This document shows, one piece after another, positions 6,617-43,386 of a stretch of DNA of 43,386 nt. Numbering within the stretch: the stretch's first letter is position 1; each line of letters starts with the position of its first letter. The notes under the pieces were generated by a model. It was not told the origin of the DNA. It saw only the letters and a program-made list of their open reading frames with translations, and did no database searches. Source of the DNA: a virus (lineage: Duplodnaviria > Heunggongvirae > Uroviricota > Caudoviricetes); the IMG/VR virus record IMGVR_UViG_2563366976_000013; one strand, given 5' to 3'. Position numbers and translations under genes: made by a program.

Positions 6617-6631
6617 TTACCTTTCAGGTAA
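6617..6631. promoter_or_regulatory. Operator-type palindrome TTACCtttcaGGTAA
   Basis: Perfect 5-5-5 inverted repeat; same motif family as cI/cro operators. Confidence 0.5.
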
Positions 6632-6668
6632 TTTGCAAAACGTGCTGGATAGCAAACAAATTATTTGC

Positions 6669-6688
6669 TACTGTATAAATATACAGTT
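6669..6688 (+). promoter_or_regulatory. LexA (SOS) box TACTGTATAAATATACAGTT
   Basis: 18/20 match to consensus TACTGTATATATATACAGTA, CTGT-N8-ACAG core intact; 20 nt upstream of ATG at 6708. Confidence 0.7.
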
Positions 6689-6707
6689 ATTGCATGGAGA
6701 AGATAAG

Positions 6708-6965
6708 ATGCAGCAGTATCACTATCCACTGGAAGACGGATTTACCGAAAGGATTCACACGCCGGGAGGCGTCAGGTCACTGGTGGAGGGATCGCACTTG
6801 ATGAAATTACTCCGGGATCTCGATAAGGATGGATTTAATGTCGATGGCCCACTTGCCGAACTGACTGCACTGATTAACTACGTCACCAGCTCACAGATGT
6901 CTATGCAGGATCTGCAAACACATCTCGACTATTGTGCCGAACAATTACGAAAACAAACCAGATAA
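6708..6965 (+). CDS. Small SOS-controlled antirepressor-like protein (standalone version of the Ant C-terminal domain)
   Basis: 85 aa from ATG 6708 with RBS GGAGAAG; aligns with C-terminal about 80 aa of the three Ant paralogs (PL..G..IH.P.GV..L.E.S.LM.LL..L..DG..V.G..AELT....Y......DLQTH..Y). Confidence 0.6.
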   Translation: MQQYHYPLEDGFTERIHTPGGVRSLVEGSHLMKLLRDLDKDGFNVDGPLAELTALINYVTSSQMSMQDLQTHLDYCAEQLRKQTR

Positions 6966-6968
6966 GGT

Positions 6969-7011
6969 TTGCAATTACCAAATGGAGTGCTTATATTTAC
7001 CTTTGCGGTAA
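6969..7011 (+). promoter_or_regulatory. Promoter for ant1 leader with overlapping operator
   Basis: -35 TTGCAA (6969-6974), 17-bp spacer, -10 TATATT (6992-6997), palindrome TTACCtttgcGGTAA 6997-7011 over the start site. Confidence 0.55.
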
Positions 7012-7038
7012 ATTTACATCGCACTCCTCTTGTGCCAT

Positions 7039-7090
7039 AGTAATCAGGCACTGGCAAAATCCAGTGCCGGGATTGGTCTCCCGGATTACT
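7039..7090 (+). ncRNA. Conserved structured leader RNA element upstream of ant1 (three-way junction fold), followed by leader terminator
   Basis: AGTAATC...GATTACT outer stem enclosing hairpins GGCACTGG-caaaat-CCAGTGCC and CCGGGA-ttggtc-TCCCGG; near-identical copy in ant2 leader (11160-11213, minus strand). Confidence 0.45.
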
Positions 7091-7104
7091 ACAGAGGCAC
7101 ATAT

Positions 7105-7124
7105 GCCGCATAAGCGGTTTTTTT
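7105..7124 (+). terminator. Leader terminator/attenuator upstream of ant1
   Basis: Short GC stem GCCGC-ataa-GCGG followed by T7 run; analogous stem plus T7 in ant2 leader. Confidence 0.45.
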
Positions 7125-7278
7125 ATGTGTAAAGCGCACCTATTCTATGGTGGGCTGTGTGGGGGCACCGAAAGGTGCGCCGGGTTCCTTTGTAGCCGGT
7201 AAGACCAACTCTGCACAGTTCACCACCATCTGATTGGTCTCAGCGGTGGTGATTAACCTAACTACAAAGGTGATCGCC

Positions 7279-7971
7279 ATGAATACCAAACCTTCCATCT
7301 TTTCCTTTGAGTCATCCTGCCAGATCCGTATGTTCATGATTGACGGAGAACCTTGGTTTGTCACCAAAGATGTGTGCAATGCTTTGAATATTGATGTTAC
7401 ACAAGCGAGAAAACTTGATAAAAAAGGCTGGAACAAAAAGGGGCTGTATTCAATACAGACCCCTGGTGGAATACAAGAACTATCCATCGTTTCAGAATCA
7501 GGTCTCTACATCCTTATTCTGCGTTGCAAAGAGGCAATGACTGAGGGAACGAGAGCATTCAGATTTCTTGAATGGGTTACAGGCGAAGTACTTCCTCAGA
7601 TCCGCCGCACCGGAAGCTACATTAAAAACTCGCTCCCGCAGGAAGAACGCATAAAGATGGTTGCCGACCAGGTAGCCAACGCCACGGCGTCAGCAGTAAT
7701 GCAGGCGATGAAGATAGAGAACAAAACCTACAGCGCCCCACTGAAGCCCGGCTACCGCAGCCTGATTCATTCGCCGTCTGGTGTTCTCGGCCTGACGGAG
7801 AACTCACTGCTGATGAATCTGCTGAACCAGTTACAGGACGACGGGCACGACGTATCGGGCGCGGCGGCGGAGCTGACCACCATGTTCTGCTACATCGTCG
7901 GTGTGAGCAAATGCCTGCGTGATATCCAGACCCACGCGGAATACATCAACGACAAGGCAGGGTTCTTCTGA
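7279..7971 (+). CDS. Antirepressor paralog 1: Bro-N/KilA-N-type N-terminal domain plus shared Ant C-terminal domain
   Basis: IDGEPWFVTKDVCNAL motif (Bro-N-like); C-terminal 100 aa near-identical to the other two paralogs; start at ATG 7279 with RBS AAAGGTGA (ORF track begins at upstream TTG 7234). Confidence 0.75.
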   Translation: MNTKPSIFSFESSCQIRMFMIDGEPWFVTKDVCNALNIDVTQARKLDKKGWNKKGLYSIQTPGGIQELSIVSESGLYILILRCKEAMTEGTRAFRFLEWVTGEVLPQIRRTGSYIKNSLPQEERIKMVADQVANATASAVMQAMKIENKTYSAPLKPGYRSLIHSPSGVLGLTENSLLMNLLNQLQDDGHDVSGAAAELTTMFCYIVGVSKCLRDIQTHAEYINDKAGFF

Positions 7972-8014: not shown

Positions 8015-8057
8015 TTGCAGACCGGGGGTGAATAGCGTACTATTACCTTAAAGGTAA
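8015..8057 (+). promoter_or_regulatory. Promoter/operator module (J element) upstream of YafO-like cassette 1
   Basis: -35 TTGCAG, 17-bp spacer, -10 TACTAT ending at first T of palindrome TTACCttaaaGGTAA (8043-8057). Confidence 0.5.
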
Positions 8058-8099
8058 ACCTGTTTTTATTTTATACCTGTAACTTACCGGAGATTAAAG

Positions 8100-8426
8100 A
8101 TGACAAAACTTGGATTCGTGATGAGAGGTCCGGTAAGAAGCGGAACTCATGCAAAGCGTAGCAAGAGTCGTATTTTTACTGGTAAGGTTGTAGCACGTAA
8201 ATCAGCTATTGGCTCGTTCAATAGTGAAAATGCGGCATTGCGCCATATTTTTATCAGCACAAAGCCAAGAGCATCCGCTGATGTGCATACAATGTCTATT
8301 CCTATCACAAAGAATATAAAGCGGATAAAAAAGCTCTCATCTGCAGAATCAAAAGAGATATCTTTCCGCCAGCTTAACTCATTAGAAACGCATATGAAGG
8401 AAGAGGAATTCGATGTTTTTGAGTGA
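8100..8426 (+). CDS. Putative antitoxin/partner protein of YafO-like toxin 1 (basic, no recognised fold)
   Basis: 108 aa, RBS GGAG, overlaps toxin start by 14 nt (translational coupling); weak similarity to partner of cassette 2 (ARKSAIGSFNSE vs ARRSFNGSVE). Confidence 0.35.
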   Translation: MTKLGFVMRGPVRSGTHAKRSKSRIFTGKVVARKSAIGSFNSENAALRHIFISTKPRASADVHTMSIPITKNIKRIKKLSSAESKEISFRQLNSLETHMKEEEFDVFE

Positions 8427-8925
8427 GTATAGCGGGAAGGTTATACCTACTGGTGAGTTTAAAACTGATGACTTTCTGATTTCGCTAAAAGATGCTTTTA
8501 AACAACACTGGCGTCATGGTCATCATCCTGATCTGGGAAAAGATACTCTTTTTGAAAGACCAGAGGAAGTATTAGGCTTCCATCTCAGAAAGGTTCATGT
8601 CAATATTGGTGAATATGCATCATATTCATACTCATGTACTGAACAGTGTTGGGATGAGTGGTCATATGGATTGATTGATGAACAAGGAAATTACAGGCCA
8701 AAACCAACCAGTAACGCATATCTCATATATGCAGTCAATGAAATAAGAGATGCAGCCTTACTAGCTTATTGGGACCCGCCCGCACACACCAAAGCTAACG
8801 CAAAAGTTTGGATGGATTCCGTATTGAATTTCACAAAATTATTTCATGAACGAACGAATACAGCTCCACTTAGTAGAAATGTTTATCCGTGGGATTATTC
8901 GTACAAATCCAAAAAGCCTGCATAG
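8413..8925 (+). CDS. YafO-like toxin domain protein, copy 1 (type II toxin, ribosome-dependent mRNA interferase family, by motif)
   Basis: Motifs W.HGHHPDLGKD..FERP...L.FHLRKVHV and AYLIYAV...DAALLAYWDPPAH resemble YafO from memory; paralog of 9440..9985; RBS AAGAGGAA. Confidence 0.5.
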   Translation: MFLSEYSGKVIPTGEFKTDDFLISLKDAFKQHWRHGHHPDLGKDTLFERPEEVLGFHLRKVHVNIGEYASYSYSCTEQCWDEWSYGLIDEQGNYRPKPTSNAYLIYAVNEIRDAALLAYWDPPAHTKANAKVWMDSVLNFTKLFHERTNTAPLSRNVYPWDYSYKSKKPA

Positions 8926-8935
8926 TAGTTTTTTA

Positions 8936-9155
8936 TGGACGAAACAAAAGTCAGTGCTACACTCATTGACGCCACATTGAGGTGGCTTATAGATGGAAAT
9001 TTCACAATGAAAAAAGCATTTGCTGCACTGTTCGTTTTGTTGTCTCTGGTAGCGTCAACTCAGGCCTTTGCCGGTCGTTGTCAGCACGACAGCGACACTG
9101 CTGCTGACGGCTCCCGCTGCGGTGGGCGTTCTGCGGATTCCCGCCCGGGCGGCGG
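8936..9155 (+). repeat. Direct repeat copy A (220 bp, one mismatch to copy B at 10007..10226)
   Basis: Identical sequence block containing small signal-peptide ORF; seen directly. Confidence 0.9.
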
Positions 9156-9174
9156 CACAGGGATGTGCCTTTAA
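9007..9174 (+). CDS. Small secreted Cys-containing peptide (55 aa) or gene fragment, copy 1
   Basis: Signal peptide MKKAFAALFVLLSLVASTQAFA then about 30-aa mature part with Cys residues; ends inside J junction sequence; weak RBS. Confidence 0.3.
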   Translation: MKKAFAALFVLLSLVASTQAFAGRCQHDSDTAADGSRCGGRSADSRPGGGTGMCL

Positions 9175-9205
9175 ATAATTCTGTACAGATTGCAGGTGAA
9201 TAGCG

Positions 9206-9225
9206 TACTATTACCTCAAGGGTAA
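9206..9225 (+). promoter_or_regulatory. -10 TACTAT plus operator palindrome TTACCtcaagGGTAA upstream of cassette 2
   Basis: Same J module as at 8038-8057. Confidence 0.5.
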
Positions 9226-9285
9226 ACGGATTGGTTTCATTTTTATTAATCCGTGTAATGAACTTATGAGATATGAGGTAATGTC

Positions 9286-9465
9286 ATGCGAAACGAAAAA
9301 TTGCAGATGCGTAGAGCGCAAGCTGCCGCAAGACGTTCTTTCAATGGAAGCGTAGAGTACGTAAAAGTTACTATGACAAAAGATCACGCAAGTCGCGTAT
9401 CCCGCGCTTTCTTTGATTCTCGTAACAATAAGGAAAATTATGAGTTCGTCTGCGTCGCAGAATGA
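9286..9465 (+). CDS. Putative antitoxin/partner of YafO-like toxin 2 (59 aa, below ORF-track cutoff)
   Basis: ATG 9286 with RBS GAGGT 8 nt upstream; overlaps toxin 2 start by 26 nt; manual translation MRNEKLQMRRAQAAARRSFNGSVEYVKV... Confidence 0.3.
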   Translation: MRNEKLQMRRAQAAARRSFNGSVEYVKVTMTKDHASRVSRAFFDSRNNKENYEFVCVAE

Positions 9466-9985
9466 TAAAAATCAAATTGTCAGATATAAGGGTCGAGTAT
9501 TGCATACGCAAAATTTCTCGGCCCTTTGTGCATCTGATCTTGAGCTGAAGAAAGTATCTGATGCCTTTACCCAGTATTGGAAAACGGGATACCATCCATC
9601 TCTTGGTAAAGATGCTGCATTTGCTCGTCCGACAGAAATGCTTAAACTAAATGTCAGGCATACTCATGTCGATAACCAAGACTATATTCCAGAAGATAGT
9701 GATAAAAAACACACTGGTAAAAAATCATCTTGGGATGCATGGAAAAATATAGCGTCTGTGCAAGTAAAATGCATACCAACAAGTGATTGCTTTTTAGTTT
9801 ATTCGGTAAATCACAATCGTGATGCGCTGGTTATGTTTTTTGTTGACGCAGATGCCCACAACATAACTGAGCAAGAAGAGTTTAAAGAGGCAGCAATCAC
9901 TATCAGTTATCAATTCTTTGAGAAAACAAAAACAGAACCAATGCCTTTAGAAGAAGATCTTTTTTCTGATAAATGGAAGGAATAG
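9440..9985 (+). CDS. YafO-like toxin domain protein, copy 2
   Basis: Motifs W.TGYHPSLGKD..FARP...L.LNVRHTHV and CFLVYSV...DALVMFFVDADAH; start at ATG 9440 with RBS AAGGA; followed by terminator. Confidence 0.5.
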   Translation: MSSSASQNDKNQIVRYKGRVLHTQNFSALCASDLELKKVSDAFTQYWKTGYHPSLGKDAAFARPTEMLKLNVRHTHVDNQDYIPEDSDKKHTGKKSSWDAWKNIASVQVKCIPTSDCFLVYSVNHNRDALVMFFVDADAHNITEQEEFKEAAITISYQFFEKTKTEPMPLEEDLFSDKWKE

Positions 9986-10312: not shown

Positions 10313-10969
10313 TCAGAAGAACCCTGCTTTGTCGTTGATGTATTCCGCGTGCGTCTGGATATCACGCAGGCATTTGCTCACACCGACGATGTAGCAGAAC
10401 ATGGTGGTCAGCTCCGCCGCCGCGCCCGATACATCGTGCCCGTCTTCCTGCAACTGGTTCAGCAAATTCATCAGCAGTGAGTTCTCCGTCAGGCCGAGAA
10501 CACCAGACGGCGAATGAATCAGGCTACGGTAGCCGGGCTTCAGTGGGGCGCTGTATTCTTTTTTGTCTTCCAGCTTGATCGCCTCCATAATGGCGGGCAT
10601 GAAGCCTGACAAGACCTTCTCCACTTTTGTTTCTTGTTGTCTTAAACGTTTCTCGCATTCAATGAAGTAGCGTCGCACCTGGCGACCTTTTTCGTTACGC
10701 TCGACCATCGCCAGCTCTTTGGCTGTATCAAGGGTGAGGTGGTACTCTTTGCGGTTGTGGCCGCCTCTACCAGATGTTTGCTTTCCCAAATTGGAAAGCA
10801 AAATATAGTCTTGATTTTCAATGAATTCGTATTCTGATATGCGATTTGTAATCCATGCTGCAAACACCTTTTTAACACCTAAAAAAGCGTGCAGATCGCG
10901 GGCATTACAAAGTAGGGCTGTTTCGTTAGATATAGTGCCGTTGAATACGGGGATGAGTTGAGCGTTCAT
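10313..10969 (-). CDS. Antirepressor paralog 2: AntA-type N-terminal domain plus shared Ant C-terminal domain
   Basis: N-terminus [23 protein letters not shown], middle [20 protein letters not shown]; C-terminus near-identical to ant1 and ant3; RBS GGAGACG. Confidence 0.75.
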
Positions 10970-11125
10970 GATGGCGTCTCCACTTAGCGAATTACATCAC
11001 CACCGCTGAGACCAATCAGATGGTGGTGAACTGAACGGAGTTGGTCTTACCGGCCTAAGTGGTACCGGCGTCCTTTCGGACCCCCATTCAGCCCACCATA
11101 ATTCTGGCATGACTGTGCTATACGC

Positions 11126-11285
11126 ATAAAAAAACCACGTCTGGCGTGGTATGCGCCACTTAGTAATCCGGGAGACCAATCCCGGCACTGGATTTTGCCA
11201 GTGCCCGATTACTATGGCACAAGAGGAGTGCGATGTAAATTTACCGAAAAGGTAATGATAAACGCTAAGAAATATTAAAATCAAC
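11126..11285 (-). promoter_or_regulatory. ant2 promoter, operator (11241-11255), structured leader (11160-11213) and leader terminator (11126-11150)
   Basis: Mirror image of ant1 control region with near-identical structured element; palindrome TTACCgaaaaGGTAA. Confidence 0.5.
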
Positions 11286-26755: not shown

Positions 26756-26792
26756 TTGACATTTAACGCACAAATTATTACCTTTTAGGTAA
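26756..26792. promoter_or_regulatory. -35-like TTGACA and operator palindrome TTACCttttaGGTAA at terminase-portal moron
   Basis: Palindrome 26778-26792; TTGACA at 26756-26761 on plus strand. Confidence 0.4.
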
Positions 26793-27114: not shown

Positions 27115-27191
27115 GTGGCATTAGCTCAGTTGGACAGAGCAACCGCCTTCTAAGCGGTTGGTCGCAGGTTCGAATCCTGCATGCCACGCCA
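27115..27191 (+). tRNA. tRNA-Arg (anticodon UCU, reads AGA)
   Basis: Manual cloverleaf: acceptor GTGGCAT/ATGCCAC, D-arm GCTC/GAGC, anticodon stem ACCGC/GCGGT with loop CTTCTAA, T-arm GCAGG-TTCGAAT-CCTGC, discriminator G, CCA encoded. Confidence 0.85.
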
Positions 27192-27277: not shown

Positions 27278-27353
27278 CAGCAGGACGCCATTGCGATGAC
27301 TTCATGCTGTAAACCCGTACAGCCACGGAAGGCATAACTCATTGCTTCCAGTT

Positions 27354-27379
27354 CGCCCGGTTCGCCGGGCATTTTTTTG
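27354..27379 (+). terminator. Second rho-independent terminator
   Basis: GCCCGG-ttcg-CCGGGC stem then T7. Confidence 0.6.
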
Positions 27380-27394
27380 CCTGATGACCACAAA

Positions 27395-27409
27395 TTACCT
27401 TAAAGGTAT
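27395..27409 (+). promoter_or_regulatory. Operator-like site TTACCttaaaGGTAT overlapping RBS of moron ORF
   Basis: 14/15 match to palindrome family, 5 nt before ATG 27414. Confidence 0.35.
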
Positions 27410-27413
27410 AATC

Positions 27414-28262
27414 ATGAAAAACTTTAAGGTAATTAGTATGTTCGAATCGTTCAAAGAGCTGTTTTTATCTACTGCCAATACTGCCGTGCATCGAGCTAAA
27501 AACCCTGTGCTTGGTGCTTTTGTTATGTCCTGGTGCGCCTTCAACTGGAAATCACTTCTTTATCTGTTTTTTAGCAAATCAAATATAATAGATAAAATTT
27601 CATACATCTCAGATAACAGCACATGGAAAACTGTTATGTTTTATCCATGCTTATCTGTAATTACTATCTGCTGCCTATTACCATGGGTAAACAATATCAT
27701 TAACGTATGGCAAGCAAAACCTCTTGATAATAATGACTCAATCGAAAACCACCGGAAGGCAAGAAAAATACAACGTGAAACACGGCTACAGAGATTGCTG
27801 GCTAAAAAAGACATTACTTACGAAAAAGTAAAAACAGGCGCTGAAAAAAACATTCAAGACATGAAAGAGGAAATAATTCTTTCAAAAGACAGAATGGGAC
27901 AACTCACATCTGAATTGAAAGAGAGGGAGACAGAACTGCGCGCAGCACAAGCTCGTATTTTAGAATTATCTAAGGTTATTGATGAAACAACATCTAAACT
28001 AGAAAATCTAGAAAAAACTCACAAAAATTTAAAAAACGAATATGAGTCCTATAAGAAAAACATTCCTTTGGCAACAAATAATACAATTGCTAATGGGCTT
28101 GTAGGTCTAAAATCATTACAAGACTTTAATGAGTCCGTAAAGAAACTTGGCGTTACTGGAATTAACAATCCAGAAATCAGTACATTATTGAATAATCCTC
28201 TAGTAAATATAAATGGTGATTTAAATTCCACCTATCAAAGAAAATCAAAAACACAAAAGTAA
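27414..28262 (+). CDS. AT-rich moron: membrane-anchored coiled-coil protein (candidate abortive-infection/exclusion factor)
   Basis: 283 aa from ATG 27414; two hydrophobic helices then long Lys/Glu-rich coiled coil; low GC vs flanks; opposite strand to late operon, inserted between terL and portal. Confidence 0.55.
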   Translation: MKNFKVISMFESFKELFLSTANTAVHRAKNPVLGAFVMSWCAFNWKSLLYLFFSKSNIIDKISYISDNSTWKTVMFYPCLSVITICCLLPWVNNIINVWQAKPLDNNDSIENHRKARKIQRETRLQRLLAKKDITYEKVKTGAEKNIQDMKEEIILSKDRMGQLTSELKERETELRAAQARILELSKVIDETTSKLENLEKTHKNLKNEYESYKKNIPLATNNTIANGLVGLKSLQDFNESVKKLGVTGINNPEISTLLNNPLVNINGDLNSTYQRKSKTQK

Positions 28263-29735: not shown

Positions 29736-30328
29736 TGATTACCATCCTGACGTTCTTTGAGTCGCTTCCTGGCTGCTGCTATGCGATCAGCAATTGTCAC
29801 ATTCACATTAACATCCAGACGTTCTTTGAACGCGTTGACATCAACATGCTTACCAATCAGCTCAAGGTTCTTCACCTTGTCAGGCCATTTAATTTTTTTG
29901 AGGATTGTCTCTATCGAATCCTCGTTCATGTTCATGATGGTCGATGACAGATCAAAGCCACTAAGCGTAGTGCGCCAGATTTTCGGCCACTCACGGATTG
30001 GTTTAAGGCTCCCATCGTCGTTGAGGATGTCGATCACGTCCATCTGGTCGATCTCCACCAGGCGCATGAGAACGTAATCAGCACTGACACGCATTCGTTT
30101 GTTGCGCTCCTCCATCAACTCGGCAATCCGTTTTTGAATGCGTTCATCGCGCATCATGACACTGGCTTTAACTGCCGCTGTATTTGGGGAGAATCCTGCG
30201 TTAATCGCTGCCTGAGTCTGGTTTTCAGGCGTTTTGATGTATGACTGGCAATAAGCCTCCTGCATTGCTGTTAGTGGCTTAAATTGCGTTGATTTGCGTT
30301 TATAGGTTTTAGGTTCAGCAGGCATCAT
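29732..30328 (-). CDS. terS: Terminase small subunit
   Basis: Position immediately upstream of terL with overlap; start placed at MMPAEPK with RBS GGTGG (ORF track extends to 30406). Confidence 0.6.
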   Translation of the reverse strand: MMPAEPKTYKRKSTQFKPLTAMQEAYCQSYIKTPENQTQAAINAGFSPNTAAVKASVMMRDERIQKRIAELMEERNKRMRVSADYVLMRLVEIDQMDVIDILNDDGSLKPIREWPKIWRTTLSGFDLSSTIMNMNEDSIETILKKIKWPDKVKNLELIGKHVDVNAFKERLDVNVNVTIADRIAAARKRLKERQDGNQ

Positions 30329-30446
30329 AACCACCGTGGTAATAGTTACCGTTTTGGTAATAGTACCATGCAAAATAAAGCCGCCATAGTTGGCGGCAGT
30401 ATTCAAAACCCGTCAAATTCATCATGCATAATCTACTCGTGACATG

Positions 30447-34189: not shown

Positions 34190-34266
34190 TTACCCTTGAG
34201 GTAATTAAAAACCACATAAGACACGAAATCAATAGATTTTAGAATATTTTATTACCCAACAGGTAA
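34190..34266 (-). promoter_or_regulatory. Internal early promoter bracketed by two operator palindromes
   Basis: TTACCcttgaGGTAA (34190-34204) and TTACCcaacaGGTAA (34252-34266); minus-strand -35 TTGATT / -10 TTTAAT between them. Confidence 0.45.
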
Positions 34267-35909: not shown

Positions 35910-36173
35910 TCAGCTTGAGTGTTGTGGGGAGGAATTAATCATGATCTGCTTAATCTCTGCCCTGATGCGACGGTTTGATTCCATGGTGCACTCAACACAG
36001 TGTCCGTTGTAAACCCAGCGTTCACTGTCATGTCCATGCTTACATGGTTTTCCGGTGTAGTAGCGTTTAAGTCCGCGCTTTGCGGCATCAATACGTGTAA
36101 TGATTTCCATGGTAAGCCCTGTTATTAGTATTGGGATTACGGTCATTTTGTGCTGACACAAAAAAAAGATCAA
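35910..36173 (-). CDS. Small zinc-binding protein in cII-equivalent position (probable start 36110)
   Basis: CKHGH...CVEC motif; between Cro-like and O-like genes. Confidence 0.35.
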   Translation of the reverse strand: MIFFLCQHKMTVIPILITGLTMEIITRIDAAKRGLKRYYTGKPCKHGHDSERWVYNGHCVECTMESNRRIRAEIKQIMINSSPQHSS

Positions 36174-36260
36174 CCAGATTTGGTTTTTTATTACCTTTGA
36201 GGTACGAATAGATATGAAAAGACCGCCGGGTGGCGGTCTACAGAGGGTTGTAGCTGGATA

Positions 36261-36491
36261 TCATGAGTAGAAGAAGTATGCCAGTTCTGCTTTTGAGCGC
36301 AGCCATTGTCTTGTTTTACAGGCTTTAAAAAGCCCATTCATCAATACCTTACCTGGCATTTTGCGCTTACCTGTTAAGTGAGTCTGGATATAGTGACTCG
36401 TCGTTCCGGCTTCCTGTGCGAAGGCTTCACGCTCATCCGGAGTAAGTGCAAGCCAGTGCTTTTTGAAATCGAAATGTCCGTTATCGCTCAT
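36261..36491 (-). CDS. Cro-like HTH regulator
   Basis: 76 aa, first gene of early-right operon divergent from repressor gene. Confidence 0.5.
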   Translation of the reverse strand: MSDNGHFDFKKHWLALTPDEREAFAQEAGTTSHYIQTHLTGKRKMPGKVLMNGLFKACKTRQWLRSKAELAYFFYS

Positions 36492-36527
36492 AGCTATTGC
36501 CTGATATTTATTTCAGATAATAAATAT

Positions 36528-36590
36528 TCACCCATAAGGTAACAAAAATCAAGGATAGTTACCTGTGGGGTGCATTTACCTGTTGGGTAA
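36528..36590. promoter_or_regulatory. Tripartite immunity operator O1-O3 with divergent promoters
   Basis: O1 TCACCcataaGGTAA (36528-36542), O2 TTACCtgtggGGTGC (36559-36573), O3 TTACCtgttgGGTAA (36576-36590); minus-strand -35 TTGTTA / -10 TATTAT overlaps O1. Confidence 0.55.
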
Positions 36591-36645
36591 TATTGCTTTA
36601 AATTGAATCATCTACTGATTCATATATGAGGCGATTTTCCAGAAA

Positions 36646-37230
36646 ATGAAAAGTATCCAGGACGTCCGCAGGCAAAATCTCAACGACTTGATCGACCGTG
36701 AATTCAATGGTGTTCAGACGCGGATGGCAGAAAAACTTGGAACTCAGGCAAATCTGGTAAACCGCTGGGCTCTTGGCAAGAAGGTTATCGGCGACCAGGT
36801 TGCACGAAAAATTGAAGCTGCCGCCAATAAACCCCGTAACTGGCTTGATATTGATCGTTCGCTTTCTCAGGAGGGTTTTCAGCCTGTCGGCCCGAGCGAT
36901 ATAGGTCAGCTGGCGGCTCACAACCTGGAACGCTGGATGAGCGAAAGCCGCGACCTTTCAACACAGGGAAAACTTCACCGCGCATCCGGCGTCGCCCAGG
37001 TGACAATCAGCCGCCTGTTAAACAATGAGGTCAGCGTTTCCATTTCCACCCTGGAGAATGTTGCATCCGCATTCGGGCGTCACGGATATGAACTACTGAT
37101 TCACCCGCACGACCCTGCGACTATCAACTATGACCGCTCGCGCTACGCATTGTTACCCGAAACCGAGAAAGCAAAGATCGAAAGTTACATTGAATTTGTC
37201 ATCAACCAGAACGAAAAAAGCAAAAAATAA
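36646..37230 (+). CDS. CI-like repressor with two HTH regions and no recognisable LexA/S24-type self-cleavage domain
   Basis: 194 aa; HTH-like segments near residues 20-45 and 115-140; C-terminus lacks Ala-Gly/Ser..Lys peptidase signature; divergent from Cro-like gene. Confidence 0.55.
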   Translation: MKSIQDVRRQNLNDLIDREFNGVQTRMAEKLGTQANLVNRWALGKKVIGDQVARKIEAAANKPRNWLDIDRSLSQEGFQPVGPSDIGQLAAHNLERWMSESRDLSTQGKLHRASGVAQVTISRLLNNEVSVSISTLENVASAFGRHGYELLIHPHDPATINYDRSRYALLPETEKAKIESYIEFVINQNEKSKK

Positions 37231-37250
37231 AACTATATTTTTCAGTAAGT

Positions 37251-37275
37251 AAGCCGCCTCATGGCGGCTTTTTTA
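37251..37275 (+). terminator. Rho-independent terminator after repressor gene
   Basis: AAGCCGCC-tcat-GGCGGCTT followed by T6. Confidence 0.7.
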
Positions 37276-37287
37276 TTGCCAGATAGA

Positions 37288-37364
37288 TTACCTTACGGGT
37301 AATTTTTTTAACTCATATCTATTGACAACAAACCAAATAAGCATAATTATTACCTCAACGGTAA
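37288..37364 (+). promoter_or_regulatory. Early-left promoter flanked by two operator palindromes
   Basis: TTACCttacgGGTAA (37288-37302), -35 TTGACA (37322-37327), 17-bp spacer, -10 AATTAT (37345-37350), TTACCtcaacGGTAA (37350-37364). Confidence 0.55.
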
Positions 37365-41129: not shown

Positions 41130-41453
41130 AATCACGCCTGACGAATCGCGATTATCTCGCTATTGGTATTGCAGAGATTGCTGGACTCAGTGGCGCATGA
41201 TTTGACAATGCCGCCAGAGCTATCGCATACTGACCGCACTAGAACTTCAAAGCGGTCACCCGCACCCGATAGCTTTGCGGCTTTTTTATGCCTGCAATTT
41301 GGCATAGTCACATCCGTACAAAGGTCGGGTGGAGAGGCGTAATACAATACCCAAAAGGGGAATATGCCCGGAGCGTCTTTGAAGGCTCTAGTTGACACCC
41401 GATCACCAGCTACTAACTGGTGATTGCTAACTAAAACTTCAAAGGAGGTCATC

Positions 41454-42104
41454 ATGACCAGTCAACTCATCCCCGTATTCAACGGCACTATATCCAACGA
41501 AACCGCTCTTCTCGTTAATGCCCGTGATTTACACTCTTTCCTCGATGTAGGTAAGCGATTTGCTTCGTGGATTGTCGAACGAATTGCTGAATATGGTTTC
41601 GTTGAAAATCAAGACTTTATGATTATTTCCCAAGTTCGGGAAAAAATAGGCAGAGGCCGTCCTGCAAAAGACTACCACCTCACCCTCGATACAGCCAAAG
41701 AGCTGGCGATGGTCGAGCGTAACGAAAAAGGTCGTCAGGTACGATGCTACTTCATTGAATGCGAGAAACGTTTAAGACAACAAGAAACAAAAGTGGAGAA
41801 GGTCTTGTCAGGCTTCATGCCCGCCATTATGGAGGCGATCAAGCTGGAAGACAAAAAAGAATACAGTGCCCCGCTGAAGCCCGGCTACCGCAGCCTGATT
41901 CATTCTCCGTCTGGTGTTCTCGGCCTGACGGAGAACTCACTGCTGATGAATCTGCTGAACAAGTTACAGGAAGACGGGCACGACGTATCGGGCGCGGCGG
42001 CGGAACTGACCACCATGTTCTGCTACATCGTCGGTGTGAGTAAATGCCTGCGTGATATCCAGACGCACGCGGAGTACATCAACGACAAGGCAGGGTTCTT
42101 CTGA
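41454..42104 (+). CDS. Antirepressor paralog 3: AntA-type N-terminal domain plus shared Ant C-terminal domain
   Basis: High identity to paralog 2 across most of length; RBS AAGGAGG; hairpin CACCAGctactaaCTGGTG just upstream. Confidence 0.7.
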   Translation: MTSQLIPVFNGTISNETALLVNARDLHSFLDVGKRFASWIVERIAEYGFVENQDFMIISQVREKIGRGRPAKDYHLTLDTAKELAMVERNEKGRQVRCYFIECEKRLRQQETKVEKVLSGFMPAIMEAIKLEDKKEYSAPLKPGYRSLIHSPSGVLGLTENSLLMNLLNKLQEDGHDVSGAAAELTTMFCYIVGVSKCLRDIQTHAEYINDKAGFF

Positions 42105-42135: not shown

Positions 42136-43386
42136 TTATTCCCCCGCCATCCACTTCTCAAACTTCGACGGGGAGAACGGAATCAGATCCGTATGCTCCC
42201 CGTTAATCCAGGAATCAATCATATCGGCCCACTGCTGCAACATGTAGGCGCGCTGTCTGGCGTATTCCGCTTTGTTATATACGGCGCGCACACCTTTCTG
42301 CTCATGTGCCAGAGCCTTTTCAATCCAGTCTGAAGGATAACCAGCCTCATGCAACAACGTACTGGCTGTACGGCGCATATCGTGTACGGTGAAGCCCTGA
42401 ATATGCTCACCATCTTCATTTATTATTTTCACCGTTCTGTCGATCAGAGAGTTCAGCGCGGCATTAGATAATGGCTTCCGGAAATTGTAACGACCAGGAA
42501 CCAGATATTCACTTCCACCAGCGCACATCTGCAACCCAACCAATATATCCTGTGCCTGTTTAGGCAGGTAAATAACGTGCGCCCGGCTTCCCTTCATGCG
42601 GTCTGAAGGAATTGTCCATGTCCATTTTTTAAAATCTATTTCATCCCACGTTGCATTGGTGAATTCGCCTTTACGAACCATAGTGATAAGCACCAGCTTT
42701 AAAGCCATTTTCATAGTGCCCATAGCACCAATGGCATCCAGCGTGCGGAAGAACAGGCCAATTTCTTCTGGTGTCAGTGTTCGCTCTCGTGGTTTAAATA
42801 TGGCGATAGACGAAGGTTTAATGTCAGCCGCAGGATTAAACAAACCATGACCACGGTCATTGGCGTGACGGTATACGCTGCTGATGATCTCCCTGGCCTG
42901 TACTGCTGTTGCCCGACCACCGCGTTCGACAATCCGGTCACACAAATCACGAACCATCGATGTGGTAATTTCAGCCATCATTTTGTTGCCAAGAACCGGA
43001 AGTATGTCACGGTCGATCACCGCCTGCTTCATTGCGCGGGTACTGTCAGCCAGGATAACGTGTTTCATATAACTGTCGGTATGTACCGCAAACGTCTCGG
43101 CACCACGAATCTTTTTGATACCGTCACGTTTAGCCGCAGCCGGTGACTGGCCTGCTTTAAGCAGCTTCTTTGCAGCAATCAGTTCTTCCCGCGCTTCTGC
43201 CAGGCTGATACCGTCACGCCCATACTGCCCGATTACCAGTGTTTCGCGGCGACCGTTGATACGGTAGTCATAGCGAAACGAGACCGTGCCTGACGTAAGC
43301 ACAGCTACATACAGCCCGTCACGATCGGAGACCTTGTACAGTTTGTCCTGCGGCTTGAGGTTTTTTAATTTTGTATCGGTAAGCAC
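42136..43386 (-). CDS. int: Tyrosine integrase (phage integrase family), N-terminus truncated by window end
   Basis: N-terminal LTDTKLKNLKP...DGLYVAV arm-binding type region and C-terminal catalytic region with HDMRRT and terminal-Y context; ORF runs off window. Confidence 0.85.
   Translation of the reverse strand: MLTDTKLKNLKPQDKLYKVSDRDGLYVAVLTSGTVSFRYDYRINGRRETLVIGQYGRDGISLAEAREELIAAKKLLKAGQSPAAAKRDGIKKIRGAETFAVHTDSYMKHVILADSTRAMKQAVIDRDILPVLGNKMMAEITTSMVRDLCDRIVERGGRATAVQAREIISSVYRHANDRGHGLFNPAADIKPSSIAIFKPRERTLTPEEIGLFFRTLDAIGAMGTMKMALKLVLITMVRKGEFTNATWDEIDFKKWTWTIPSDRMKGSRAHVIYLPKQAQDILVGLQMCAGGSEYLVPGRYNFRKPLSNAALNSLIDRTVKIINEDGEHIQGFTVHDMRRTASTLLHEAGYPSDWIEKALAHEQKGVRAVYNKAEYARQRAYMLQQWADMIDSWINGEHTDLIPFSPSKFEKWMAGE

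Follow-up and report, generated by a model that had tools for sequence, protein, structure and literature searches.

Which kind of genetic switch is encoded at positions 36,261–37,364 of this 43,386-nucleotide viral DNA (IMG/VR record IMGVR_UViG_2563366976_000013; the whole stretch is called the window below)? The initial annotation implied a lambda-type switch, in which a CI-like repressor acts through a classic cooperative operator arrangement. The region is 97.6% identical in DNA sequence to phiV10, with which the window is collinear, and it was found in 562 of 5426 complete E. coli genomes, approximately one in ten. As set out below, the locus is very probably the immunity center of a Uetakevirus (phiV10/epsilon15-like) E. 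coli prophage with an SPC32H-type Rep/Ant switch. This type of switch has already been described for related phages, and the prophage is an ordinary member of the family. The relatives phiV10, TL-2011b, and the O157 typing phages are in use for typing and reporter-phage work.

Divergent genes and the three operators between them

The operator consensus was taken as TTACC-N5-GGTAA, with mismatches counted against its half-sites. The features on the cro side and between the two divergent genes are as follows (operators are listed without strand).

36191–36205: operator-like site, one mismatch, situated past the cro terminator and ahead of the gp40-like/replication genes
36173–36145, minus strand: candidate promoter downstream of the 36191 operator, TTGATC-17-CAAAAT, 8/12, read from sequence
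36220–36239, minus strand: terminator of the cro-position gene, 8 pairs, 6 of them G-C, with a T-rich tail
36261–36491, minus strand: cro-position gene, 76-residue ORF, the first early-right gene (phiV10 p41, epsilon15 gp39)
36524–36552, minus strand: early-right (cro-side) promoter, −35 TTGATT at 36552–36547 and −10 GAATAT at 36529–36524, conserved across relatives
36545–36517, minus strand: overlapping alternative cro-side promoter from the promoter scan, TTGTTA-17-TATTAT
36528–36542: O1, TCACCCATAAGGTAA, one mismatch, within the cro-side promoter spacer
36559–36573: O2, TTACCTGTGGGGTGC, two mismatches
36576–36590: O3, perfect TTACCTGTTGGGTAA, beginning 70 bp before the repressor start codon
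36646–37230, plus strand: Rep, 194 residues, SPC32H-type repressor, divergent from the cro-position gene

The layout proposed earlier is largely borne out: a small ORF and a gene for an HTH protein diverge from a segment with three operators, the centers of O2 and O3 are 17 bp apart as claimed, and O1 is situated between the hexamers of the cro-side promoter. O1 had also been called distant and degenerate; it is centered 31 bp from O2 and deviates at one position, but the most degenerate site here is O2.

The three operators differ in how they are conserved. In 12 of 13 lineages, O1 deviates in exactly one of its half-sites, which then reads TCACC or GGTGA; the Klebsiella O1 fails the one-mismatch cut-off, and the only variation in O1 among 68 haplotypes is at the N5 position 36533. 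The surrounding promoter block AAAAATCAA (= TTGATTTTT) changes little or not at all between the aligned lineages and does not vary in the 68 haplotypes. A lone two-mismatch site is not significant, as the window holds 39 against 12.6 expected. O2 is credible because it lies exactly 17 bp from O3 and because a perfect copy occupies the equivalent position in four lineages (epsilon15, SPC32H, Klebsiella, and Citrobacter); its variable positions in the haplotypes, 36564–36568, all fall in the N5 center. O3 shows no variable position in the 68 haplotypes, and its distance to the repressor ATG is identical in all lineages. Another two-mismatch site, at 36367 within the cro-position ORF, was taken as chance.

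The repressor's own promoter was not located, and the candidate −10 elements adjoining O3 are inconsistently conserved among the aligned lineages. The candidates rejected on this ground were TAATAT, which overlaps O3, TTTACC-18-TAAATT, TTGAAT-based promoters, and the leaderless TACAAT of epsilon15. The palindrome TGAATCA-N5-TGATTCA (36605–36623) was considered as a second operator or leader hairpin and likewise set aside; it is conserved within the phiV10-like clade only.

The cro-position protein matches PHROG phrog_35, 'transcriptional repressor' (E 5.6e-13), and gave no match in Pfam or in a PDB sequence search. Its AF2 model consists of five helices (pLDDT 81.6), and the best Foldseek matches of this model are YdaS, the 434-repressor DNA-binding domain, and C-proteins, at a TM of about 0.6 and E>1. 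The protein is 58–84% identical across clades with GTTSHYIQ.HLT invariant, and is conserved equally to or better than Rep. The label 'Cro-like' agrees with the position, the small size, the PHROG match, and the all-helical HTH model, but the fold matches of the model are non-significant, and the label is tentative. Beyond this gene, the terminator is annotated at the homologous place in phiV10, and the one-mismatch site at 36191 recurs at its position in phiV10, Tyrion, Klebsiella, Superficieibacter, Pseudescherichia, and Pseudocitrobacter.

The early-left promoter is flanked by an operator pair

On the other side of the locus, the repressor gene is followed by its own terminator and by a second pair of operators around a TTGACA promoter, in agreement with the first reading.

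37251–37279, plus strand: repressor terminator, hairpin at 37251–37270 with 8 pairs, 6 of them G-C, TTTTTTATT, followed by a T-run
37288–37302: OpA, upstream operator, perfect, ending 19 nt before the −35 element
37322–37350, plus strand: early-left promoter, TTGACA (37322–37327)-17-AATTAT (37345–37350), 10/12 consensus
37350–37364: OpB, downstream operator, perfect, overlapping the last −10 base and the expected start site

The terminator is annotated in phiV10 too, and Tyrion keeps the hairpin with an altered loop. The centers of OpA and OpB are 62 bp apart, and this distance is 61–63 bp in all 13 lineages. Across four clades, CTATTGAC and (A/G)ATTAT are conserved while the spacer diverges. 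Early-left haplotypes were compared from the right-hand anchor, since ungapped slices are confounded by T-run length variants. In the 42 haplotypes compared in this way, TTGACA is invariant, and OpA carries 12 different N5 centers with unchanged half-sites.

The operators belong to a prophage-wide family

The window contains 16 sites with at most one mismatch (12 perfect and four one-mismatch), whereas shuffled sequence gives 0.71 ± 0.95 such sites and a maximum of five. The same family was recovered independently by a repeat finder. After correction of ORF starts, all 16 sites adjoin promoters or gene starts or are intergenic. Besides the antirepressor modules described below, the remote members include the following.

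34190–34266, minus strand: second promoter module with an operator pair, behind the replication genes, operators at 34252–34266 and 34190–34204 flanking TTGATT-17-TTTAAT
30328–30360, minus strand: terminase operator pair, 18 bp apart, directly upstream of the small terminase gene
26778–26792: head-gene operator, upstream of the head-gene block
8043–9225, plus strand: two operators with promoters (8043–8057 and 9211–9225), each fused to the −10 element of TTGCAG-17-TACTAT

The centers of the 34252 and 34190 operators are again 62 bp apart, and this pair is also present in phiV10, Tyrion, epsilon15, SPC32H, Klebsiella, and six further species. One more of the 16 sites lies at 27395. Two geometries are seen: the repressor and terminase promoters have pairs with a spacing of 17–18 bp, and 61–63-bp pairs bracket the early-left and post-replication promoters, in arrangements retained by 13 lineages. 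The epsilon15 homologue of the terminase operators, at 12–27, is annotated 'protein_bind repressor', and that of the head-gene operator, at 2931–2947, is annotated 'repressor'.

The initial annotation did not notice that its five sites belong to a set of at least 16 operators, or that the system had already been described for related phages. The genes behind the 8043 and 9211 operators are of unknown function, and their promoters were read from sequence. Flanking sequence is shared between 8043 and 9211, between 6997 and 11241 as mirror images, and between 36207–36217 and 37313–37323.

Rep is a full-length homologue of the SPC32H repressor

Residues 1–190 of Rep align by phmmer to residues 2–197 of PDB 5D50_A, 'Repressor', with an E value of 3.4e-42. 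The identity to SPC32H Rep is approximately 43% overall and 53% in the N-terminal domain, and Rep is 99% identical to phiV10 p40 and to ZX5 ORF21. Rep begins with a DNA-binding HTH, continues with an HTH_3-like middle domain, and ends in a segment for oligomerization and Ant binding. Pfam placed HTH_3 at residues 106–147 and a weak YdaS-like match at residues 21–61; the Pfam search returned HTH families only and no S24 autopeptidase domain, and all family matches of the repressor are of the Xre/HTH_3 type. Conservation within Rep is highest in the N-terminal domain, where NLVNRW is invariant, which fits an operator that is unchanged across clades.

Published work on relatives describes the corresponding proteins. 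The behavior of ZX5 ORF21 and ORF4 on over-expression is that of a repressor and an antirepressor, respectively (PMC9782041). According to two reports (PMC9638917, PMC9986798), SPC32H Rep has an N-terminal DNA-binding domain, a middle dimerization domain, and a C-terminal tetramerization/Ant-binding domain, and it is a tetramer on DNA that is disassembled by a tetrameric antirepressor. Palindromic sites are also reported as its targets, and a CAD domain is reported to mediate the interaction with Ant. The mechanism of repression is said to remain poorly characterized (PMC9986798).

Antirepressor genes lie behind the same operator

The counterpart of the SPC32H antirepressor is encoded 30 kb from the immunity region, behind a LexA box, and two further modules resemble the immI region of P1.

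6617–6965, plus strand: induction module, with an operator at 6617–6631, the LexA box CTGTATAAATATACAG at 6671–6686, and ant at 6708–6965
6997–7971, plus strand: P1-immI-like module, with an operator at 6997–7011, isrK at 7048–7124, C4 at 7143–7230, and a large Ant ORF at 7234–7971
10313–11255, minus strand: second, inverted immI-like module, with an operator at 11241–11255, isrK at 11204–11128, C4 at 11103–11019, and Ant at 10969–10313

The LexA box is perfect and lies 22 bp before the ant ATG. The 85-residue ant product (window positions 6708–6962) matches PDB 5D50_E, 'Anti-repressor protein', with an E value of 4.1e-47 and approximately 86% identity, and its homology to SPC32H Ant covers 83 of the 85 residues. 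In the first immI-like module, the operator sits between two promoter-like sites. The large Ant ORF of this module, whose likely start is the ATG at 7279, matches the PHROG anti-repressor Ant and shares homology with the small Ant through its C-terminal domain. Rfam scored isrK at 74.7 bits and C4 at 78.6 bits in this module; the two C4 scores, 78.6 and 61.2 bits, exceed the gathering score of 45, and each C4 is upstream of an Ant ORF.

Operators are retained while repressors and flanks diverge

To compare the operators between phages, related lineages were aligned. The motif and its positions are common to phiV10, Tyrion, Klebsiella BUCT711, epsilon15, SPC32H, and eight further species, that is, 13 enterobacterial lineages, although the repressors are only 41–79% identical across the 13 (41–74% in the eight further species). 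The spacings of 17 bp, 30/31 bp, and 61–63 bp for the pair recur in these lineages, and the alignments show conserved operators and promoter hexamers within diverged flanks. The haplotypes are near-identical copies from an IMG/VR scan with the Rep alignment, which gave 99%-identical copies only; in 68 rep-cro and 42 early-left haplotypes, changes concentrate in the N5 centers and flanks, and the half-sites are fixed except in three singleton OpB variants. This conservation across lineages and haplotypes strongly backs the claim that the sites are functional regulatory elements. The motif is absent in five distant homologues that share only the N-terminal part of Rep (Paraburkholderia, Hydrogenovibrio, and Thiomicrospira). 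Because the motif is identical in every clade, there is no Rep/operator covariation that would tie it to Rep over the cro-position protein.

Proposed mechanism and alternative explanations

Taken together, homology to SPC32H Rep (43% identity) and conservation, on which every functional assignment here is based, make it highly likely that the prophage uses an SPC32H-type switch whose operators are read by Rep. Rep would be a non-cleavable repressor of three domains, active as a tetramer and reading TTACC-N5-GGTAA through pairs of its N-terminal HTHs. At O1, bound Rep would sit between the early-right −35 and −10 elements and block the cro-position gene. The abutting O2 and O3, on the repressor side, are likely the landing pad of one tetramer and the site of autoregulation. 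The early-left promoter would be clamped by two operators 62 bp apart, or about six helical turns, of which one covers the −10 element and the start and the other immediately precedes the A/T-rich stretch in front of the −35 element; a single bivalent tetramer may bridge OpA and OpB. Elsewhere in the prophage, this operator is predicted to guard the antirepressor modules, the operons for terminase and head genes, the promoter behind the replication genes, and several promoters whose genes are of unknown function. Induction would proceed without RecA-stimulated cleavage: inactivation of LexA would release the 85-residue Ant, which would bind the C-terminal region of Rep and dismantle the tetramer.

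A lambda-type switch, with CI-like dimers cooperative on three operators, Cro acting in the reverse order, and RecA-stimulated autocleavage, has the layout in its favor, namely divergent genes with three sites between them, further operators clustered at the early-left promoter, and lambda-P-type replication and RecT/exonuclease genes after the region. We nevertheless consider this mechanism, the one originally implied, very improbable, since Pfam finds no S24 peptidase in a protein that is a full-length homologue of SPC32H Rep, reportedly tetrameric, inactivated by Ant, and uncleaved; in addition, a LexA-controlled Ant homologue is present and the operators are spread over the genome. It is still harder to regard the repeats as relics of duplicated promoter cassettes or as chance palindromes that bind no protein. 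The shared flanks at some sites do suggest cassette duplication, but 16 sites stand against 0.7 expected, 13 lineages retain the positions and spacings despite diverged flanks, and half-sites are fixed in the population while the N5 centers vary freely.

Less remote, though unlikely, is the idea that the motif is read mainly by another regulator, either the cro-position protein or a late/early activator, with a secondary role for Rep or none. Conservation is higher in the cro-position protein than in Rep, and the invariant putative recognition helix of this protein would fit an invariant motif; several sites lie at late-operon starts with poor −35 elements, and covariation that would link the motif to Rep is absent. 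Against this, the annotation of epsilon15 attributes the sites to the repressor, and palindromic sites are reported for Rep. The sites also cover the −10 element and start of strong, consensus-like promoters, a placement suited to repression, and they guard antirepressor genes, as is sensible for a repressor. Moreover, lambdoid Cro and repressor usually share operators, so that this alternative largely overlaps with the Rep/Ant explanation.

Within the Rep/Ant explanation, we put forward a more speculative idea, which we hold to be possible but not probable: the fixed geometries (17–18-bp and 61–63-bp pairs) might reflect how a bivalent Rep tetramer occupies DNA, bound either to abutting palindromes or across a six-turn micro-loop, Rep might be a prophage-wide silencer of at least 10 promoters, and the always-imperfect O1 might be the weak link that fires first. 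If so, the silenced promoters would include late operons and up to three of the prophage's own antirepressor modules, and Rep would be closer to P1 C1 than to lambda CI. The 62-bp spacing could also be fixed partly by promoter geometry and the UP-like A/T tract instead of looping. Collectively, these results reveal no new kind of biology; they assign the locus to a known family and correct the lambda analogy. A verified operator map, in which the conserved pairs at 62 bp, the O1 that is imperfect throughout, and the antirepressor-module operators are all placed, provides precise positions to address by footprinting, by ChIP, and with mutants of altered promoter spacing.

Comparison with known systems

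The closest described system is that of the Salmonella phage SPC32H, a Uetakevirus, whose Rep/Ant lytic switch (PDB 5D50, 5D4Z) was reportedly treated by Kim and Ryu (J Virol, 2013) and Kim et al. (PNAS, 2016). Both phages have full-length homologues of Rep and Ant, a LexA box at ant, the same operator motif, the O3-17-O2-30/31-O1 arrangement, and 62-bp pairs. O2 is perfect in SPC32H and degenerate here. SPC32H and epsilon15 carry, unlike this prophage, a third early-left operator behind an extra hairpin, and SPC32H is without the three large Ant-domain proteins and the two isrK/C4 modules found here.

For epsilon15, repressor-binding sites are said to have been predicted by Kropinski et al. 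in 2007. The same 17-bp ATTACC-N5-GGTAAT occurs there at the terminase, head, ant, early-left, and post-replication positions. Seven such sites are marked 'protein_bind: repressor' in the RefSeq record (NC_004775), whereas the three in the repressor-gp39 intergenic region (33341, 33358, and 33388) are present but unmarked; the phiV10 record marks no repressor-binding sites.

The locus shares with the OR/OL regions of lambda, P22, and 434 the divergence of repressor and small-regulator genes from a segment with three operators, an early-left cluster, and palindromes of 15–17 bp. In contrast to those phages, the repressor here has no autocleavage domain, induction is assigned to an antirepressor, operators are genome-wide, and adjacent sites are 17 bp apart instead of 20–24 bp. 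A further difference would be the tetramer with 'trans' pairing of its DNA-binding domains, which is reported for SPC32H Rep.

In P1/P7 immunity, too, a single repressor motif recurs at many promoters genome-wide, and immI has C4-family antisense RNA genes before ant with a repressor operator at the module promoter; in this prophage, the immI-like modules are accessory and duplicated. The P1 operator is asymmetric, whereas the operator here is a palindrome. In Gifsy prophages, LexA-controlled small antirepressors act against a non-cleavable repressor, and those proteins are unrelated to the ones described here. Finally, coliphage 186 also has a non-cleavable repressor that is inactivated by a small LexA-controlled protein, Tum (work cited in PMC9782041), and the proteins of the two systems are unrelated.

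Organization of the immunity region

The divergent genes, three operators, terminator and operator-flanked early-left promoter that the initial annotation had described are all present in the following arrangement.

Elements of the immunity region (operator mismatches are counted against TTACC-N5-GGTAA)
36261-36491 (-): cro-position ORF, 76 aa
36528-36542: O1, one mismatch
36559-36573: O2, two mismatches
36576-36590: O3, perfect
36646-37230 (+): rep, encoding a 194-aa HTH protein, divergent from the cro-position ORF
37251-37270: terminator of the repressor gene
37288-37302 and 37350-37364: OpA and OpB, both perfect, flanking the early-left promoter
37322-37350: early-left promoter, TTGACA-17-AATTAT, 10/12 consensus positions

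The centers of O2 and O3 lie 17 bp apart, as proposed, and O1 lies further off, 31 bp from O2. O1 is bracketed by a promoter-like site on the cro side, in agreement with its placement in a promoter spacer, and the terminator behind the repressor gene is followed by the operator pair around the TTGACA promoter. O1 had also been called degenerate; it is indeed imperfect, but the most degenerate operator here is O2. The annotated anatomy is right and gives good experimental targets.

Additionally, a palindrome with perfect 7-bp arms (TGAATCA-N5-TGATTCA, 36605-36623) lies between O3 and the rep start codon and is kept only in the phiV10-like clade. The cro-position gene forms a one-gene unit with its own terminator (36220-36239), and transcription of the replication genes downstream of it seems to depend either on read-through or on a weak promoter of their own beyond the 36191 operator (36145-36205). 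Positions 36172-36217 repeat the early-left promoter region in rearranged form.

Rep and the cro-position protein

Rep, the 194-aa repressor, contains two HTH-type domains and aligns over its full length with SPC32H Rep (PDB 5D50_A, E 3.4e-42). A domain search of the protein found no S24 peptidase domain, the cleavage domain by which a lambda-type CI is recognized, and the lambda-type CI reading of this gene is not upheld. For SPC32H Rep, two papers that cite the original work (PMC9638917, PMC9986798) describe an N-terminal DNA-binding domain, a middle dimerization domain and a C-terminal tetramerization and Ant-binding domain; a tetramer sits on palindromic sites with DNA-binding domains from different dimers and is dismantled by a tetrameric antirepressor. 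For the 99% identical proteins of phage ZX5, repressor and antirepressor roles were supported by over-expression in a study that did not map operators (PMC9782041).

The sole family match of the 76-aa protein is to the PHROG "transcriptional repressor", its model shows five helices with an HTH, and its likeness to YdaS, the 434-repressor domain and C-proteins is non-significant only; therefore, "Cro-like" is a label that is reasonable by position and unproven. Across clades, this protein is better conserved than Rep.

Conservation of the operators

We compared six phage genomes (the window, phiV10, Enterobacter phage Tyrion, Klebsiella phage BUCT711, and Salmonella phages epsilon15 and SPC32H) and eight further species from a genome scan (Superficieibacter, Erwinia dacicola, Pseudescherichia, Pseudocitrobacter, Klebsiella, two Citrobacter and Scandinavium), whose repressors are 41-74% identical to the window Rep. 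The operator motif and positions are common to all of them: O3 begins ~70 bp ahead of the repressor ATG, with O2 at 17 bp from it and O1 another 30-31 bp beyond, and the early-left pair is spaced by 61-63 bp. A second pair, spaced by exactly 62 bp, follows the replication genes wherever the examined stretch reaches them. In the alignments, the operators, the cro-side -35 TTGATT, the early-left CTATTGAC and the (A/G)ATTAT hexamers are kept amid diverged sequence.

Among near-identical relatives (68 haplotypes for the rep-cro region, 42 for the early-left region), the substitutions are located in N5 centers, promoter spacers and flanks, with 12 different centers at OpA among the 42. Half-sites and TTGACA are invariant except for three singleton OpB variants. 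Fixed half-sites with variable centers are the pattern expected of a dimeric HTH protein reading two half-sites.

O1 is perfect in no lineage: exactly one TCACC/GGTGA half-site occurs in 12 of the 13 enterobacterial lineages compared, and the Klebsiella O1 is still more degenerate. The phiV10-like clade and the epsilon15-like clade differ in its promoter-proximal side. A weak O1 appears to be under selection.

Operators across the prophage

The operator recurs as a signal throughout the prophage. Allowing up to one mismatch, 16 sites occur in the window, compared with 0.71 ± 0.95 in shuffles, and a repeat search recovered the family independently.

Operators in the window
Perfect (12): 6617, 6997, 8043, 9211, 11241, 26778, 30346, 34190, 34252, and O3, OpA and OpB
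One mismatch: 27395, 30328, 36191, 36528

They are located at the ant promoter, at two isrK/C4/Ant modules, at two TTGCAG-17-TACTAT promoters, and 5' of the head genes and small terminase; an operator-flanked second promoter module sits after the P-like replication gene. Some operators fall in apparent coding sequence only because the crude ORF caller carries each ORF back to the first start codon upstream.

In 8043-9985, a region inserted relative to phiV10, two near-identical cassettes fuse TTGCAG-17-TACTAT to an operator, and the genes behind them, which have no assigned function, include two phrog_1651 paralogues (8413-8925, 9413-9985). The site at 27395-27409 is operator-like and fused to TATAAT, just within the 5' end of ORF 27342-28262 (+), a coiled-coil protein not assigned to any family; a tRNA gene occupies 27115-27188. 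A near-identical counterpart of this site occurs in the attP/int upstream region of the other phages.

Antirepressors and RNA modules

An 85-aa ORF matches the SPC32H antirepressor Ant (5D50_E, E 4.1e-47). A perfect LexA box, CTGTATAAATATACAG (6671-6686), lies 22 bp ahead of it and is preceded by the operator at 6617-6631. By homology, the prophage encodes the cognate Ant partner of Rep.

The SPC32H-Ant-like domain occurs in four proteins of this one prophage.

Ant-domain proteins
6708-6965: small LexA-controlled Ant
7234-7971 (likely ATG 7279): large Ant-domain protein
10313-10969 (-): large Ant-domain protein
41424-42104 (likely ATG 41454): large Ant-domain protein

The three large proteins are fusions with Bro-N/ANT N-termini, and their last ~80 aa are almost the same in all three. 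A single large Ant is present in phiV10 and none in SPC32H. Rfam places an isrK sRNA and C4 antisense RNA cassette in two inverted copies (7048-7230 (+), 11204-11019 (-)), each 5' of a large Ant gene with a predicted Rep operator at the promoter. An sRNA-Xcc1 match (Rfam, 62.9 bits; 41323-41412 (+)) lies directly 5' of the fourth Ant-domain gene, between methylase and integrase, with no Rep operator nearby.

Identity to SPC32H is ~86% for Ant versus ~43% for Rep, which suggests that Ant could act on heterologous Rep proteins, a possible prophage cross-talk.

Prophage identity and extent

The prophage belongs with the epsilon15-like podophages of genus Uetakevirus. Over the 1.5 kb around the immunity region, identity to Escherichia phages phiV10, ZX5, TL-2011b and O157 typing phages 9 and 10 is 97-98%, and this stretch is present in 562 of the 5426 complete E. 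coli genomes; phiV10 is collinear with the entire window. Ahead of the lysis genes come two host-like ORFs, which encode a lipoprotein (1-516) and a secreted coiled-coil protein (532-1071), and the left prophage end lies at ~1100-1160. The integrase gene (42136-43386) closes the window, which stops at its start codon.

Proposed mechanism and comparison with known systems

What is established of the switch is the homology of Rep and Ant, the lack of a cleavage domain, the presence of a LexA box, and the conserved sites. In the mechanism that we propose, Rep would bind the TTACC-N5-GGTAA sites and occlude the early-right promoter via O1, one tetramer would occupy O2 and O3 with rep autoregulated, and one tetramer would bridge the 62-bp operator pair. 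SOS induction would proceed through Ant. Tetramer binding may plausibly be bivalent and geometry-locked, with a six-turn loop at the promoter.

The system falls within the SPC32H/epsilon15 Rep/Ant family, and the switch is already described in close relatives. The epsilon15 RefSeq record labels seven ATTACC-N5-GGTAAT sites as repressor-binding, whereas the three sites between the repressor and gp39, the counterpart of the cro-position gene, are unlabeled. Unlike lambda-type CI, which is defined by its cleavage domain, Rep carries none. The isrK/C4/Ant cassettes resemble P1 immI, and with its dispersed operators and C4/ant modules the prophage may work somewhat similarly to P1.
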